From IMG/VR virus record IMGVR_UViG_2541047122_000019: a stretch of DNA of 4,893 nt; one strand, 5' to 3'. Below, one piece after another: positions 1-4,893 of the stretch (positions within the stretch are counted from its first letter, which is position 1; each line of letters starts with the position of its first letter). A model generated the notes under the pieces. It did no database searches. It saw nothing but the letters and a program-made list of their open reading frames with translations, and was not told the origin of the DNA. The position numbers and the translations under genes are program-made. Source of the stretch: a virus. Lineage: Duplodnaviria > Heunggongvirae > Uroviricota > Caudoviricetes.

Positions 1-463
1 TCCGTTACCGGCGCGGCTTTCGGCTCTGCTGGTAAATCAGCGCCCGGTATGCAGTAACGAAATTTACCGTTCTGATTTACGCGTGCCAGGCGCCCCGTTG
101 CTGTTACGACCGCCAACGTGGAAGCAACCTTGCGAATGCTAACACCGAACTTACCCGCCAGTTCCTCACACGTTTTAGCCCCATCCTGACCGATAAACTC
201 AATCATCATGTCTGCGGTAACTTTTTGTTCGACCTCCCCGGTCAGCACATCCGGCGCTTCAGGTTGTAGTGCCTGCCCTTCGGTTACCCCGGCTTCACCT
301 TCGACAGCCAGAAACCAGGTGTGACCCGTTTTATCAACAACGCCATTTTTTTGAGTTCCCACAGTTCGTTAAGAACTTCTTCACGGCTGATATCAAGCCG
401 CGCCGCCAGTTCAACAGAATTGGCTTTACCCATCGCTTTCAGTGCATGCAATACGGTTTCCAT
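1..463 (-). CDS. Hypothetical prophage protein (winged-helix-like N-terminus); frame interrupted by an apparent 1-nt frameshift in an A7 homopolymer; 3' end beyond the window edge (possible pseudogene or sequencing error)
   Basis: ATG at 463..461 with SD GGGAGGAAG (complement of plus 469-477) 5 nt upstream. This frame gives [39 protein letters not shown] and stops at 286..284 after 59 codons. A second minus-strand frame is open with no stop from about 362 to position 1 (about 118 codons: ...[20 protein letters not shown]...[21 protein letters not shown]). The two frames join at the T7 (minus-strand A7) run at plus 346-352. Confidence 0.5.
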
Positions 464-485
464 TAAAACTTCCTCCCGGTAAAAA

Positions 486-2021
486 TCACTTCGCAATTCC
501 TGGCTGGACGACATTCGGACGCCAGCTCTCCCAGTTAAAATTCACCCATCGCCCGCCGTTCATGGTCATGCGATCCATAATCCGCTCGCCGAGCAATGTT
601 TTCATGGCCTCATAGTTCAGGTTTGTCAGCATCCCCACGCTGCGCATCGACGCTGTCCGGCGATCAACAATCTGGTGCAGCACCACCTGCTCGTTTTTCG
701 TCTCGCGCTGAATGCCAATTTCATCAAGAACCAGCAGATCTACTTCGCACAGCTCCCGCAAAAATTTTTCGCCTGACTGCCCGTCGTCATAGCTGGCGTG
801 CAGGGCGCTCATAACATCAGCCACGGTAACCACAATCACTGTCTGACCGTCTTTCAGCAGGCGATTCCCGATAGCTGCCGCTAAGTGATTCTTCCCGGTA
901 CCAGGTTTTCCGCTGAACGCAAAATTTGTACACCCGGTCATCAGTTCATCGGCGATGGATTTCGCCTGGCTTAACGCGTATCGCTGGCCGTCGTTCTGCA
1001 CCTGGTAATTCGCAAACGAGCATTTACGGTGCAACGGCTGGATGCCTGAACGATTCAGAATTTTTTCCACCCGCAACTGGCGATTCAGGCGGTTGATCTC
1101 CTCGCTACGTTTCTGGCCTTCAGCAAGTTGCCACTCGCGCCACTCCGCTACCGTTCTGAATGGGGCGGTTACATGTGGCGGGGTCAGTCGGCGGATGCGT
1201 TCCAGAACGCCGCCTGTCGCAATATTTTTCATGGTCCGTTCCCCCCTGAAGCCTGGCGGGATCGCACTGTCCGGCAACGAGACAGTGTTAACCTGTCGGA
1301 GCAACGTCTCAGGCCGAACACCTTTCGGCGCGAACAGGCCCTGGTATTCATTGGCGATGCTGTGTCGAATCACCTGCTCAGGTGTAAAACCCTGCTGACG
1401 GAATTTTTCCAGCTCCCGTATCGCCCCGTTAGCGCCCTGCTCCGTTCGAATCGGTTTTCGCAATGCCTGCCTGAACTTAACCCACTCATGCCAGAGTGTT
1501 TCCGGCAACCAGTCAGGCAGCTCGATAGCCTCCGGCTCGAATTTTTTAGACGCTCGTTTTTGGCGAGGGGGATTTAGGGGGAGATCAGTATTTATATCTT
1601 CCTCTTCCTCTGGTAACGCTTTTTGATCCGTTTGTGTAACGCTGCCAGCGTTACCTTTTCGTTTCAGTTCGCGTATTTTTGTAACTCGCTCGTTTGTAAC
1701 CGCCCGTTTTTTAGAGCTTTTTCCGTTATGACGTTCAAAGTTAGGTAGAGAAAGCCCACCGTCATTTTCGACCAGCCATCCAACCTGAATTAACGCATCA
1801 GCAAAACCAGCCATAAAAGTGATGCGGTCTATTGCACTTTTTGTAACGCCGCGAGCGTTACAATCTGCATTACCGTCTATCATTTGTTGATCCGCCCATG
1901 CCCAGAAGCGAATAACCTTCCCTAATGCGGCATCTGGATCAATATTCAGAATCTCAGCAAGCCTGAATATTTCCGGCTTATCCGGCGTAATAACCTCGAG
2001 CTTTATCCAGTTTGAAGCCAT
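486..2021 (-). CDS. Phage replication protein: N-terminal initiator domain and DnaT-like segment fused in frame to a full-length DnaC-like AAA+ helicase loader (YdaU/YdaV-like modules in one ORF)
   Basis: 511-codon ORF, ATG at 2021..2019 with SD AAGGTGA 6 nt upstream, stop TGA at 488..486. C-terminal 248 aa carries Walker [16 protein letters not shown], Walker [11 protein letters not shown], and [19 protein letters not shown] and [10 protein letters not shown], matching E. coli DnaC as recalled from memory. Residues about 175-260 end in [16 protein letters not shown], resembling the DnaT C-terminus. An internal ATG (1232..1230) with G-rich SD would give a stand-alone 248-aa DnaC-like product. 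Confidence 0.85.
1585..1712. repeat. Iteron-like repeat cluster with adjacent AT-rich stretch inside the replication gene; candidate phage origin of replication
   Basis: GTAAC-containing repeats at 1613-1620 (gtaacgct), 1636-1654 (19-bp perfect palindrome gtaacgctgccagcgttac), 1681-1688 and 1696-1703 (tttgtaac direct repeats). AT-rich run cagtatttatatcttcctcttcctc at 1586-1610. The region encodes the low-complexity acidic linker (..[11 protein letters not shown]..) between the N-terminal and DnaT/DnaC-like modules, as ori-lambda lies in the linker-coding part of gene O. Confidence 0.45.
1841..1863. repeat. Palindromic site TTGTAACGC-N5-GCGTTACAA, same family as 1636-1654 and 2034-2054
   Basis: ttgtaacgccgcgagcgttacaa read directly; 9-bp arms are reverse complements. 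Lies inside the N-terminal domain coding region of the replication gene. Confidence 0.4.
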
Positions 2022-2033
2022 TTGTTTTCACCT

Positions 2034-2054
2034 TGTAACGCTCGCAGCGTTACA
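2034..2054. promoter_or_regulatory. 21-bp palindrome TGTAACGCT-cgc-AGCGTTACA in the leader of the replication gene; candidate operator or initiator-binding site
   Basis: tgtaacgctcgcagcgttaca lies 13 nt upstream of the replication-gene ATG (2021), between the ydaT stop (2099) and the SD. Same arm sequence as the in-gene palindromes at 1636-1654 and 1841-1863. Confidence 0.45.
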
Positions 2055-2098
2055 TTTAACTGATACCGAACAAAACAATCCGGCACGATCAATTTCAA

Positions 2099-2521
2099 TC
2101 AATGCACTACGACAGAATCGCCGGGCGACCCACCACCGCTGAAATGTGCTTTCCGGTAAACGGCCTGGACTGCATCATCATGCGCATCAATTGCCGTACT
2201 CAACGCTTCCTGCGCCGCCAGTAATGCACGGCGTTCCAGGGTATCGAAGATGCAGAGTCGGTGACGCAGCTCGCGCGGAAGAATTGCCAGAACCGCAGGG
2301 ATCAGTTTCTGAATTTTTTCCCTTTGCGCTTTCGTTTCACCTTTCAACCAACGGTGATAGATATTCTGCTGATTGTTCCAGTCCTTGCCTGGTACAAGGG
2401 GCAATTCGCCGCCCCCCTGGCGCAGATATTCTTCAGTAATTGCGTTAGCGACCCACGCCTGCCCTTTTTCGGCTGCCAGGGCTAACAACACTGATTCGAT
2501 GTGCTCATGCCTGATTTTCAT
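2099..2521 (-). CDS. ydaT: YdaT-like protein (Rac/CP-933P prophage; described as a functional CII equivalent)
   Basis: 140-aa ORF MKIRHEHIESVLLALAAEKGQAWVANAITEEYLRQGGGELPLVPGKDW... matches YdaT of E. coli Rac-type prophages in length and sequence as recalled from memory. ATG at 2521..2519 with SD AGGAG 10 nt upstream. Start overlaps the stop of the upstream Cro-like gene (ATGA), and the position after cro is as expected for a cII analog. Confidence 0.75.
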   Translation of the reverse strand: MKIRHEHIESVLLALAAEKGQAWVANAITEEYLRQGGGELPLVPGKDWNNQQNIYHRWLKGETKAQREKIQKLIPAVLAILPRELRHRLCIFDTLERRALLAAQEALSTAIDAHDDAVQAVYRKAHFSGGGSPGDSVVVH

Positions 2522-2760
2522 GAATCAACCGCTCCTATGCTGTTTTCGCTATGCTTACCGTCTGGGGGGAATACATCGTCAAGTCCACAATGAGCGCCAA
2601 GCCGATTAAGGGTAGAAACAATTTTTCTGCACTCCTCTAGTCCAGGGGTACGAAAATTTGCTTCGTAATTTGCCAGTCGGCTTTGTATCCACCCTAACTG
2701 AACAGCAAGTTGTCTTTGAGACAGCCCAAGCTGTTTTCGATATGTTGAAATTTTGTTCAT
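2518..2760 (-). CDS. XRE-family HTH transcriptional regulator, Cro-like first gene of the leftward early operon
   Basis: 80-aa ORF; ATG at 2760..2758 with SD GGAGG (complement of plus 2767-2771) 6 nt upstream. HTH signature LGLSQRQLAVQLGWIQSRLANYEAN. Divergent from the repressor gene. Candidate promoter on the minus strand: -35 TTGACC (plus 2804-2809), 17-nt spacer, -10 TTTAAA (plus 2781-2786). Confidence 0.85.
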   Translation of the reverse strand: MNKISTYRKQLGLSQRQLAVQLGWIQSRLANYEANFRTPGLEECRKIVSTLNRLGAHCGLDDVFPPDGKHSENSIGAVDS

Positions 2761-2856
2761 TGAAAACCTCCGATGACAATTTTAAACACACCTTGTGTTA
2801 TATGGTCAATCTGTTTTGTGTTTTATGTAAATCACGATTCGTGATACAAGGATGCA
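2761..2856. promoter_or_regulatory. Divergent promoter/operator region of the immunity switch, between the Cro-like and repressor genes
   Basis: 96-bp AT-rich intergenic region holding the minus-strand promoter elements above and two 15-bp palindromes: AACACaccttGTGTT (2785-2799, over the -10/spacer of the cro promoter) and the perfect palindrome ATCACGAttcGTGAT (2831-2845, just upstream of the repressor SD AAGGA at 2848-2852). No convincing sigma70 hexamers were found for the repressor promoter. Confidence 0.6.
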
Positions 2857-3276
2857 ATGGAAAAAGAAAACGAAAAAATTGCCGCTAGTAGGCTCAATGA
2901 CAAAATTGCAATGCGTCTTAAAGAGCGCAGGCAGAAGCTTGGTTTATCTCAAGGAAAACTTGCTGAAATCTGCGGATGGACGCAATCGCGTATAGGTAAC
3001 TATGAGGCGGGCAGCAGAAATGTTGGAGTGCATGACGCTGTCGTATTGGGAAAGGCACTTGGCATATCTCCTCCTGAGCTCCTATTTGGAGAACAGGAAT
3101 CTTCTGAATTGTGGTTAAATGAATCCCAACGAAAACTTCTTGAGTTGTTTAACCAGCTACCTGGCTCAGAACAACAACGAATGATTGAGCTATTTGAAGT
3201 CCGGCTAAAAGAAATCGATGAGTATGTAGAAAAATATTTGAGAGGCAGGCTTAAAGATAATCCCCCACCGGAGTAA
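2857..3276 (+). CDS. Prophage repressor, XRE-family HTH N-terminal domain with helical C-terminal domain (DicA/RacR-like)
   Basis: 139-aa ORF, ATG 2857 with SD AAGGA, stop TAA 3274-3276. HTH LGLSQGKLAEICGWTQSRIGNYEAG. C-terminal LLELFNQLPGSEQQRMIELFEVRLKEI resembles the DicA C-terminal region as recalled from memory. Divergent from cro and followed by an intrinsic terminator. Confidence 0.85.
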   Translation: MEKENEKIAASRLNDKIAMRLKERRQKLGLSQGKLAEICGWTQSRIGNYEAGSRNVGVHDAVVLGKALGISPPELLFGEQESSELWLNESQRKLLELFNQLPGSEQQRMIELFEVRLKEIDEYVEKYLRGRLKDNPPPE

Positions 3277-3306
3277 TGATCTTGCTATCACAGTAATATG
3301 CCAATC

Positions 3307-3331
3307 AGCCCGCTATCAGCGGGCTTTTTTG
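3307..3331 (+). terminator. Rho-independent terminator downstream of the repressor gene
   Basis: Stem agcccgct (3307-3314), loop atc, stem agcgggct (3318-3325), followed by a T run to 3330 (gggcttttttg). 8-bp GC-rich perfect stem, 30 nt after the stop codon. Confidence 0.75.
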
Positions 3332-3359
3332 TACCATCATCATATGACACCCACCACAA

Positions 3360-3401
3360 AACACATTTCGTGTTGACATAAGAAAACGCATTGTGTTTAA
3401 T
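3360..3401 (+). promoter_or_regulatory. Near-consensus sigma70 promoter (TTGACA-17 nt-TTTAAT) overlapped by an operator-like palindrome; candidate repressor-controlled rightward early promoter
   Basis: -35 TTGACA at 3373-3378, 17-nt spacer, -10 TTTAAT at 3396-3401. Palindrome AACACatttcGTGTT at 3360-3374 overlaps the -35; a degenerate copy AAAACgcattGTGTT at 3383-3397 overlaps the spacer/-10. Same half-site family as 2785-2799. Confidence 0.55.
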
Positions 3402-3581
3402 AAGCATATCCAAACAACGCCCCACCAGAGAACGGCTGGACAATACCTCGAGTTATCCAGCCACTGAACAGGGCTAAGTAGCCAGCCTGAGGCATACGAA
3501 CATGACGGCAGTTGTTGATTGATACAAAGCGCAGTAGATAAAACGTTCCGCCACCCGGCGTTAAGGGGAAATGAGGTCAAC

Positions 3582-3734
3582 ATGGATACTATCGATCTTG
3601 GCAACAACGAATCTCTGGTATGTGGCGTGTTTCCCAACCAGGACGGCACATTCACCGCGATGACGTATACCAAAAGCAAAACGTTTAAAACCGAAGCTGG
3701 CGCGCGTCGCTGGTTAGCAAGAAACTCTGACTAA
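3582..3734 (+). CDS. Small prophage protein of the YdfA/YdaF type (about 50 aa; family name recalled from memory)
   Basis: ATG 3582 with SD GAGGT (3573-3577), stop TAA 3732-3734. Product MDTIDLGNNESLVCGVFPNQDGTFTAMTYTKSKTFKTEAGARRWLARNSD. Position downstream of the repressor matches the ydfA (Qin) / ydaF (Rac) arrangement. The track ORF starting at TTG 3519 has no SD. Confidence 0.65.
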   Translation: MDTIDLGNNESLVCGVFPNQDGTFTAMTYTKSKTFKTEAGARRWLARNSD

Positions 3735-3822
3735 TGAAATCTGGTAATTAAGGAATCCTCCACGGGGGGAGAGTGGTGCACACGCGCCGGACACAAGCAA
3801 GCATCCGGCATGCTCTTTAACA

Positions 3823-4400
3823 ATCTGGATATCCATAACAGTAAAAATCTACAGATTGCCGTTCAGTTTTCTGGCCAACTCTTCAATAGATGGAGGTGAT
3901 ACGTAATCCGGATTTTTATTCATAAGAAACTGATTTTCACAGTACAGGCACCTGCTTTTATGAAAAAATTCATATTCTCTAACCGGGAATGGCTGAAGTA
4001 TCGATACTATCTTTTGTCCAAAACATTTTGGACAAAGATGCATGATTATGCTGCCGCCGTTCACGGTTACCTCCTTCGAGTACACAAAAGTTCCCGACTC
4101 AAGTTGGCTAAGGATATAACCTTCCGTCTGAGCCTCAAAGTTTTCAAATTCTGCAATTTTAGCTTTGAGAGAAGCATTTATTTCTTGATAAGTGCCCACC
4201 AGCTCAACGAGAGACACGCATTCGCGCTGAATAGATGCAAGCTTTGAGTTCAGTTCACCAATAGCCGCATTTACTTCAGCTTGAGTTTTTGCCTCGTTCA
4301 TTAGTTTTGCAATCTGGGCGGTTTCACGAATAGCCGTCATTGCTGCCGTTAATTCAGCGATCACATTCAATACTCTTATTGTTGTTGGGGATATCCAGAT
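3823..4400. mobile_element. Putative small insertion cassette: 578 bp, AT-rich, 12-bp perfect terminal inverted repeats, flanked by a 5-bp direct duplication TAACA, carrying one ORF
   Basis: Left end ATCTGGATATCC (3823-3834) is the exact reverse complement of the right end GGATATCCAGAT (4389-4400). The match extends inward to 17/19 (left 3822-3840 vs complement of 4383-4401). TAACA directly abuts both ends (3818-3822 and 4401-4405). Hand-counted GC is about 35% at 3961-4020 against about 60% at 1201-1260. Confidence 0.4.
3849..4340 (-). CDS. Hypothetical protein, about 163 aa: N-terminal coiled-coil-like helical region and C-terminal CxxC-x22-CxxC zinc-ribbon-like motif; cargo of the AT-rich cassette
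   Basis: Minus-strand ORF with stop TAG at 3851..3849. Best start is ATG 4340..4338 (MTAIRETAQIAKLMNEAK...); alternatives are GTG 4364 or the track start 4517, whose first 59 codons lie in GC-rich sequence outside the cassette and look like a spurious extension. C-terminus has HLCPKCFGQK...(22 aa)...CLYCENQ. No recognisable SD; AT-rich codon usage. Family not recognised. Confidence 0.6.
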   Translation of the reverse strand: MTAIRETAQIAKLMNEAKTQAEVNAAIGELNSKLASIQRECVSLVELVGTYQEINASLKAKIAEFENFEAQTEGYILSQLESGTFVYSKEVTVNGGSIIMHLCPKCFGQKIVSILQPFPVREYEFFHKSRCLYCENQFLMNKNPDYVSPPSIEELARKLNGNL

Positions 4401-4541
4401 TAACAAGATCCTTGTTGTTGGGGAATAACGGGGACCACCTCGCCTGACGTGGTAAAAAGCAGGCACACAACACGAAAGCACACGGCGAGGGACACCATTA
4501 AATGGTGGCTTAAGCAATCACGCGAAGCGCAATCTGCCATT

Positions 4542-4886
4542 ATGACCGATGAAATCCCGTTAGATGATGCACTGTTACAATTGCGGGAATTTATCGACGA
4601 AAACTCCGGTGAATTTTTTGTTCAGGTCTGGGGAAATGGAGCCAACTTCGACAACACGATTTTGCGCCGTTCATACGAACGGCAGGGGATCCCCTGCCCG
4701 TGGCGTTACACCAATGATCGCGATGTAAGAACGATGGTTGCTCTGGGACTGGTGATGGATTTCGACGCAAGAACGACTATTCCATTCGAAGGTGAACGCC
4801 ATAACGCCCTGCACGATGCGCGTTACCAGGCAAAATACGTTTCAGCCATCTGGCAAAAACTGCTCCCGAGTCAGGCTGATTTTTAA
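4542..4886 (+). CDS. DEDDh (DnaQ/Orn-like) 3'-5' exonuclease-like protein, apparently lacking the N-terminal Exo I motif (truncated gene or remnant)
   Basis: ORF open from 4404; track start GTG 4449, first ATG 4542; stop TAA 4884-4886. Exo II-like motif VWGNGANFDNTIL and Exo III-like motif HNALHDARYQ (H-x-A-x-x-D-A) are present. No D-x-E Exo I motif in any in-frame upstream sequence. Weak SD at both candidate starts. Confidence 0.55.
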   Translation: MTDEIPLDDALLQLREFIDENSGEFFVQVWGNGANFDNTILRRSYERQGIPCPWRYTNDRDVRTMVALGLVMDFDARTTIPFEGERHNALHDARYQAKYVSAIWQKLLPSQADF

Positions 4887-4893
4887 TGTTCAA

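Follow-up and report, generated by a model that had tools for sequence, protein, structure and literature searches.

A prophage ydaW gene split at a run of seven A residues is very probably a young pseudogene

Intact ydaW orthologs are single coding sequences of 253-258 amino acids (aa), annotated as ydaW or as 'DUF1627 domain-containing protein' in E. coli genomes and in phage Rac. YdaW has been placed among predicted transcription factors, and its length varies between strains (PMC9308461). K-12 ydaW, when overexpressed, also came up as a hit that blocks RcaT, the toxin of retron-Sen2 (bioRxiv 10.1101/2020.06.22.160242). The copy described here lies at the edge of a window of 4893 bp, by which we mean the whole stretch of DNA that was analysed. 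This window is an entire draft WGS contig (AVRL01000069.1, GCA_000462365.2), and it ends inside ydaW.

Three described forms of the gene invite direct comparison. The ydaW of the O157:H7 prophage Sp12 (Sakai ECs_2274; EDL933_RS12290) is the same gene, with the same tract of seven A residues (A7) and the same 59-aa stub as in the window. The two differ in what lies upstream, which is an HTH_36-type initiator module in Sp12 and ydaU in the window, and their sequences part beyond window positions 428 and 245. Intact YdaW proteins (WP_226326646.1, WP_155701530.1, WP_032185409.1 and QGT53752.1 of Rac phage) share with the window copy its position, start and Shine-Dalgarno sequence, and are 92% identical to the window protein once its frame is repaired. 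In contrast to the window copy, these members of PF07789 and phrog_630 are encoded by one open reading frame (ORF) of 253-258 aa, whose tract is either eight A residues (A8) or an 8-mer interrupted by G. The Rac ydaW of E. coli K-12 belongs to the same family, and in the loci of K-12 type that were examined its similarity to full-length YdaW stops at about residue 154. Unlike the window, K-12 has the tract CTG AAA AAG GCT and keeps the frame, such that any defect in this copy is C-terminal and does not involve a homopolymer.

Genes broken in a similar manner have been described elsewhere. The 9A/9T 'pseudo-pseudogenes' (Baranov et al. 2005, PMC1088944) likewise carry a one-nucleotide indel in a homopolymer at which slippage would restore the frame, and the same kind of lesion underlies 'savior' indels, for which low-level frameshifting compensates, as at the G7 run of the HSV thymidine kinase gene (PMC5009743). 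The window's ydaW differs from both in that its run comprises only seven A residues, is not conserved in length and lacks a stimulator, and its membership of this class is not supported.

The split ydaW frame and its prophage setting

The window carries, in order, a dicA-like repressor, a cro-like gene, ydaT, ydaU-ydaV and ydaW. This order recurs in SJ7, phage Rac, Sakai Sp12, EDL933 and GE3, and the synteny with ydaS/ydaT/ydaU/ydaV agrees with that of orthologs. Directly 5' of ydaW lies a DnaC/IstB-like replication gene, the arrangement of lambdoid or Rac-like early-right operons. The window covers the part of a Rac-like lambdoid prophage that serves immunity and replication, with the following genes.

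2857-3276, plus strand: dicA-like repressor
2518-2760, minus strand: cro-like HTH gene
2099-2521, minus strand: ydaT
486-2021, minus strand: ydaU and DnaC-like ydaV, fused in a 511-aa ORF (the synteny that identifies ydaW)
463 to window edge, minus strand: split ydaW
4449-4886, plus strand: truncated exonuclease ORF of 145 aa, covering positions 47-177 of 177 of an Rv2179c-like 3'-5' exonuclease domain

A preliminary description of this DNA had drawn attention to a gene with a strong Shine-Dalgarno sequence that ends after only 59 codons, and to a run of seven T at 346-352 where two minus-strand frames meet. Both observations are borne out. The minus strand holds exactly seven A from 352 to 346, between C353 and T345, in the context GAA CTG TGG GAA CTC AAA AAA ATG GCG, and the elements around this run are as follows.

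476-472, minus strand: Shine-Dalgarno sequence GGAGG, 8 nt 5' of the ydaW start codon, within the 22 nt that separate ydaW from the ydaV stop (488-486)
463..284, minus strand: truncated ydaW frame of 39 native codons, 20 out-of-frame codons and TAA, with no Pfam match
362..360, minus strand: GTG in the downstream frame, the start of the 222-aa ECs_2274 of Sakai
352..346, minus strand: A7 homopolymer, where one base is deleted relative to in-frame alleles (-1)
347..1, minus strand: remainder of ydaW in the -1 frame (AAT GGC GTT...), repaired residues 40-154, cut at the contig end

The truncated frame runs from an ATG at 463-461 to a TAA at 286-284. An ORF lister moves its start up to an ATG at 514, which would give 76 aa, but annotated orthologs begin at the equivalent of 463. 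The 59-aa product consists of 39 native residues (METVL...ELWELKK, Met1-Lys39) followed by 20 that are out of frame. The other minus-strand frame, in the -1 register, is open from 368 to base 1, directly after a TAA at 371-369. This alternative frame, put earlier at about 118 codons, does extend to the window edge, and counts 117 codons from position 353. Adding one A joins the two frames into one, as had been proposed. The result is slightly shorter than the projected minimum of 155 codons, amounting to 154 complete codons plus a partial one.

The repaired protein aligns without gaps to an intact ortholog, with 141 of 153 residues identical (92%, E = 9e-103), and the alignment is unbroken across the junction ELWELKKNGVVDK, where ELWELKK is followed by NGVVDK. 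It is thus no coincidence that the two frames meet at the run. By itself the run is not unusual, since the window has a single A7/T7 run compared to a mean of 3.7 in shuffled sequences. Two plus-strand ORFs (269-466 and 321-482) run antisense to the gene and have no support, and no other coding was found on either strand of the region. Scans of the region for Rfam families, tRNAs, promoters and terminators were empty or at chance level.

Profile searches identify the gene. Against PF07789 the repaired window protein reaches 113.2 bits (cut-off 28.1, E = 1.3e-32), where profile positions 1-64 of 155 match repaired residues 91-154 and the match is ended by the contig edge. A full ortholog scores 282.6 bits. 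The repaired protein also matches phrog_630 of PHROGs, and the 59-aa stub alone gives zero Pfam matches. The split gene is thus the 5' two-thirds of prophage ydaW, of the DUF1627 family. In place of the one uninterrupted ORF of about 253-258 aa that marks intact members, the window copy loses its frame after codon 39, and it is best classed as a frameshifted copy of the family. For the N-terminal region of about 57 residues, matches to winged-helix DNA-binding domain families all stayed below threshold, and a PDB sequence search aligned residues 3-66 with the DNA-binding regulator MntR at a marginal E = 0.05. YdaW is a putative DNA-binding protein, and the frameshift would fall within an N-terminal winged-helix domain.

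Other genes in the window are also damaged. The TAA stop codon of ydaU, as present in strain SJ7, is GAA at 1239-1241 (minus strand), and ydaU reads through 'ERT' into the DnaC-like ydaV. This stop loss is confined to the window and one SRR710098 contig, and all 127 of the other 127 junction-matching loci (IMG/VR, E. coli) keep the T. The ORF at 4449-4886 corresponds to residues 685-823 of 823-aa phage exonucleases (YdfE-like), of which it keeps the last 139 codons and lacks the first 684 or so, and only 7 nt of contig follow its stop. This ORF looks like a truncated remnant. Because the ydaU stop loss and the truncated exonuclease lie on the same contig as the split ydaW, a cryptic prophage that is accumulating damage fits the observations.

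The window's likeness to its nearest Rac-like prophages (SJ7 and OkiPb01684, 97.3% identity) ends at position 3713, and a different module occupies 3714-4893. Within that module, a 222-aa ORF at 3849-4517 (minus strand) matches phrog_1244 and has no Pfam match, and no recorded gene has exactly that product.

Tract alleles and the seven-A state

We compared the tract in 120 loci, 113 of them from IMG/VR, together with the window. A8 is found in 79 copies, A7 in 20, AAAAGAAA in 14, AAAGAAAA in five and an unrelated 8-mer in one, and an in-frame A/G 8-mer is present in 98 of 119 tract alleles. A8 reads CTC AAA AAA AAT and encodes L K K N, whereas AAAAGAAA encodes K R N and AAAGAAAA encodes K E N. 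When complete E. coli genomes with an exact 65-68-mer are counted, A8 occurs in 309, A7 in 288, A9 in one and A6 in none, a length distribution that is strongly skewed toward the -1 state (A7 in 288 genomes against A9 in one).

In more distant relatives the tract takes other forms. The E. albertii ortholog carries AAAAGAAA, the E. ruysiae ortholog reads CTG AAA AAA GCT (A6), and K-12-type copies have AAAAAG. When species-representative genomes were scanned for the exact pattern of tract plus flanks, there was no match, and a follow-up protein scan gave only four loci, which show that the run is absent from distant orthologs. This absence, and the in-frame majority, show that the long A run is an incidental, unconserved way of encoding Lys-Lys-Asn, and that the in-frame state is ancestral and A7 a derived deletion of one base.

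The alleles that break the run are nonsynonymous, changing Lys to Arg in AAAAGAAA and Lys to Glu in AAAGAAAA (for example at 1671-1678 of locus L001, and in L015 and L132). A synonymous AAG interruption is found in none of the 119 copies with these flanks, and the divergent K-12-type copy does have AAAAAG.

Three explanations had initially been offered for the break in the frame, namely a pseudogene, a slippage-prone tract or a sequencing error. The same account held that one gene had been split by a homopolymer indel and foresaw eight A residues in orthologs. Orthologs are indeed intact single coding sequences in which this site holds A8 or an 8-mer interrupted by G. A pattern that would speak against a split gene, namely two separate genes in orthologs with a conserved seven-A tract, was looked for in these orthologs and is absent. 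A7 itself is abundant in finished genomes. An exact A7 66-mer is present in 288 complete E. coli genomes, and 43 of the 60 A7 genomes listed are explicitly named O157, Sakai (prophage Sp12) and EDL933 included. PGAP labels EDL933_RS12290 and the copy of strain 2014C-3338 as 'frameshifted' pseudogenes, and the window's exact 59-aa product is recorded in 1580 blocks of an assembly collection.

From these genomes, labels and records we conclude that the A7 allele is genuine, widespread and already annotated. A sequencing error as the source of the allele as such is very unlikely, and a pseudogene arising at a slippage-prone tract is the best supported of the three explanations. An error in the A count of the window's own draft contig is possible. 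Only the Sp12-type A7 is beyond doubt, as other A7 copies come in part from draft or PacBio-only assemblies.

Annotation of the locus is uneven. The Sakai annotation gives a 222-aa protein, ECs_2274, in place of a pseudogene, with a GTG start equivalent to window positions 362-360, and different gene callers assign 222, 184 or 171 aa to the downstream ORF. When full-length YdaW (locus L001, 1559-2326) was searched against PHROGs, its matches included piece families, into which PHROGs splits ydaW: phrog_16668 (59 positions, the N-terminal stub), phrog_11856 (160) and phrog_29124 (72). These families were probably seeded by frameshifted or truncated copies.

To compare prophage backgrounds, loci were clustered by context, using 2 kb upstream and 1.5 kb downstream. 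A7 and A8 share a prophage context in at least four clusters. In the Sp12-type haplotype, nine A7 and 16 A8 copies have identical 515-bp flanks; the A7 locus L119 has three flank-identical A8 twins; and the A7 locus L092 equals the A8 loci L032 and L108 everywhere but in the tract over the 1.1 kb compared. Some of the A7 twins derive from draft or PacBio-only assemblies, which are prone to homopolymer errors, and the number of independent events is therefore uncertain. The occurrence of A7 beside flank-identical A8 in several contexts argues that the ydaW A run is a slippage hot spot and a site of recurrent indels. Tract-length polymorphism among otherwise identical alleles in the same context, a hallmark of phase-variable loci, is present here, with the qualification that some cases may be assembly errors. 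In mismatch-repair-proficient E. coli, a run of eight nucleotides is expected to be a hot spot and not a fast switch. The hot-spot picture also fits published findings that A7/U7 is under-represented in E. coli genes in all frames, a scarcity ascribed to slippage in transcription and to frequent indels (PMC4066793).

In 21 of 22 A7 alleles the downstream frame stays open as far as its normal stop, and three of the six haplotypes found downstream of A7 occur in identical form with A8. These two observations indicate that the A7 lesions are young. Between the three A7-only haplotypes and the closest A8 haplotype of each there are one synonymous and five nonsynonymous changes in total, which is an underpowered sample, and the pairwise pN/pS values of 0.41 among A7-bearing and 0.52 among A8-bearing haplotypes form a similarly underpowered comparison.

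Origin of the copy in the window

The window's ydaW is a mosaic of three haplotypes, with a central segment identical to that of another prophage.

427..246, minus strand: Sp12-identical patch of 182 bp, 100% identical to O157:H7 Sp12 ydaW, A7 and T371 included

Upstream of 428 the window is identical to an L032-type (A8) Rac-like allele except for one private base, and below 246 its ydaW follows a third haplotype. We had considered the window as an independent origin of A7, and dropped this idea since A7 sits in the Sp12-identical patch. For the same reason, A7 most likely arrived with an Sp12-type segment and was not a fresh mutation in this copy. The segment would have been acquired either by recombination between prophage copies or in a contig that joins two copies.

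A second assembly bears on this choice. An independent de Bruijn contig (L131; Logan, run SRR710098) is 100% identical to window positions 398-3582, and it stops at 398, which is 30 nt past 428, the last site that distinguishes Sp12 before the shared stretch. The break at 398 is where a k=31 unitig would be expected to end if there were a second ydaW copy differing at 428, the value of k being our own inference. The position of this break suggests that the source genome probably carries at least two ydaW copies. Neither junction of the patch was found in 253 other loci or in complete E. coli genomes, and the left mosaic junction was absent from the metagenome contigs scanned. Gene conversion and assembly chimera would both yield such a patch and are indistinguishable from the contig alone. 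Both ends of the contig lie in prophage genes.

Alternative readings and consequences

The observations are very probably explained by a young ydaW pseudogene, produced by an A8-to-A7 deletion, in a decaying prophage. The functional allele would contain AAA AAA AAT (Lys-Lys-Asn) and, incidentally, a run of eight A residues, from which strand slippage during replication presumably removed one. Translation from the normal start would leave the frame after Lys39 and stop 20 wrong residues later, and the 59-aa product would have nothing native past residue 39, with the entire Pfam DUF1627 domain lost. Carried by Sp12 of O157:H7 and by other prophages, A7 would have passed into the window through recombination between related copies or through a contig join. 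Full-length protein could then come only from background slippage on A7, which we estimate at about 0.1% on the ribosome plus rare insertion of an A by RNA polymerase. We infer that A7 causes loss of YdaW function. A restart or slippage product from the A7 allele is possible, as the downstream ORF retains the whole of DUF1627 and has no second lesion.

It is rather unlikely that the split is an artefact of the window contig, in the sense that the Rac-linked copy truly has eight A residues and was miscalled, or that an assembler joined the Rac-linked 5' end to an A7-bearing Sp12-type paralog. A draft contig that ends within a multi-copy gene is open to such a join, and the SRR710098 break and the failure to meet either patch junction in other loci, complete genomes or the metagenome scan point the same way. 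However, the right-hand switch between haplotypes shares only nine bases (254-246), too few for a k-mer mis-join of two known haplotypes, and lambdoid prophages are commonly mosaic in this manner. Either way the A7 allele exists in the source genome and in hundreds more, and the frameshift itself is real. Another view grants the tract a purpose, as a heritable, slippage-driven ON/OFF or leaky switch of a prophage regulator with a predicted DNA-binding domain. The recurrence of A7 and A8 in situ, the -1 excess (288 against 1) and the intact downstream frames of A7 alleles would fit a switch, which we nonetheless regard as improbable. If it were true, selection would favor the silencing of YdaW in lysogens, which reversion, or slippage by polymerase or ribosome, could undo.

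Two further readings would let the A7 allele yield a useful product, and we consider each of them very doubtful. In one, the gene is a 'pseudo-pseudogene', with biologically relevant amounts of full-length YdaW made by a -1 ribosomal shift on AAA AAA A or by an extra A added by RNA polymerase. Either event would restore exactly the right frame, which is intact downstream in nearly all A7 alleles, and A7 is kept throughout O157:H7. Moreover, A runs are known slippage sites that are rare as A7/U7 in E. coli genes (PMC4066793), and a case has been made that slippage rescues ORFs broken at 9A runs (PMC1088944). Retention in O157:H7 is accounted for by clonal descent, however, and the site itself is poor. 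Its zero frame, CTC AAA AAA ATG, presents C_AAA_AAA and no in-phase X_XXZ_ZZN heptamer. The sole in-phase motif is an A_AA.A tetramer, the weakest of the shift-prone tetramers and one that depends on a stimulator (PMC4066793); tetramers without a stimulator shift at 0.147%, compared to a background of 0.112% (PMC4066793). The 96 nt after the run gave no sign of a stimulatory structure in pseudoknot-free folds (minimum free energy -33.9 kcal/mol, with shuffles averaging -29.7; z = -1.28), with 24 of 200 shuffles folding as well, and no Rfam match was found in the region. Productive slippage, and selection against slippage, are reported for runs of about nine, sometimes eight (PMC1088944, PMC5009743), whereas the run here is seven and, across copies, comes in A7, A8, A9 and interrupted forms in place of the conserved run of about nine (eight in some organisms) seen in transcriptional slippage. 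Nor is a two-ORF layout with a slippery site conserved among homologs, as 98 of 119 are in frame and distant ones, which lack the run, have A6 or A5G. Programmed recoding at the ydaW A7 thus has no support. In the other reading, the stub and a separately started C-terminal protein, of 222 aa from the GTG at 362-360 or shorter from an internal ATG ATG, are both functional. The 222-aa ORF annotated in Sakai retains a complete PF07789 domain, gene callers also propose the 184-aa and 171-aa forms, and fragment-sized phrog_16668 and phrog_11856 exist. Yet these callers disagree on the start, and the fragment PHROGs are most simply families derived from frameshifted copies. There is no visible Shine-Dalgarno-like sequence 5' of the GTG or the ATG ATG and no promoter-like site within 1-700, and because translation of the stub ends 74 nt beyond the GTG, coupling of termination to reinitiation is unavailable. 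The split state, furthermore, is a recent, minority one.

A young pseudogene made by the loss of one A thus remains our preferred reading. As such it is a classic case of homopolymer frameshift, in an accessory gene of a prophage and of little biological weight, and the same allele is already flagged in RefSeq. The window also serves as an example of how a short draft contig that ends in a multi-copy prophage gene can hold a segment of a paralogous copy. The A8-to-A7 change explains the conflicting annotations of this locus, which include a 59-aa stub, ORFs of 222, 184 or 171 aa and a 'frameshifted' pseudogene. As a site of recurrent indels, the A8 run of ydaW is relevant to the typing and comparison of lambdoid prophages in Shiga-toxin-producing E. 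coli.
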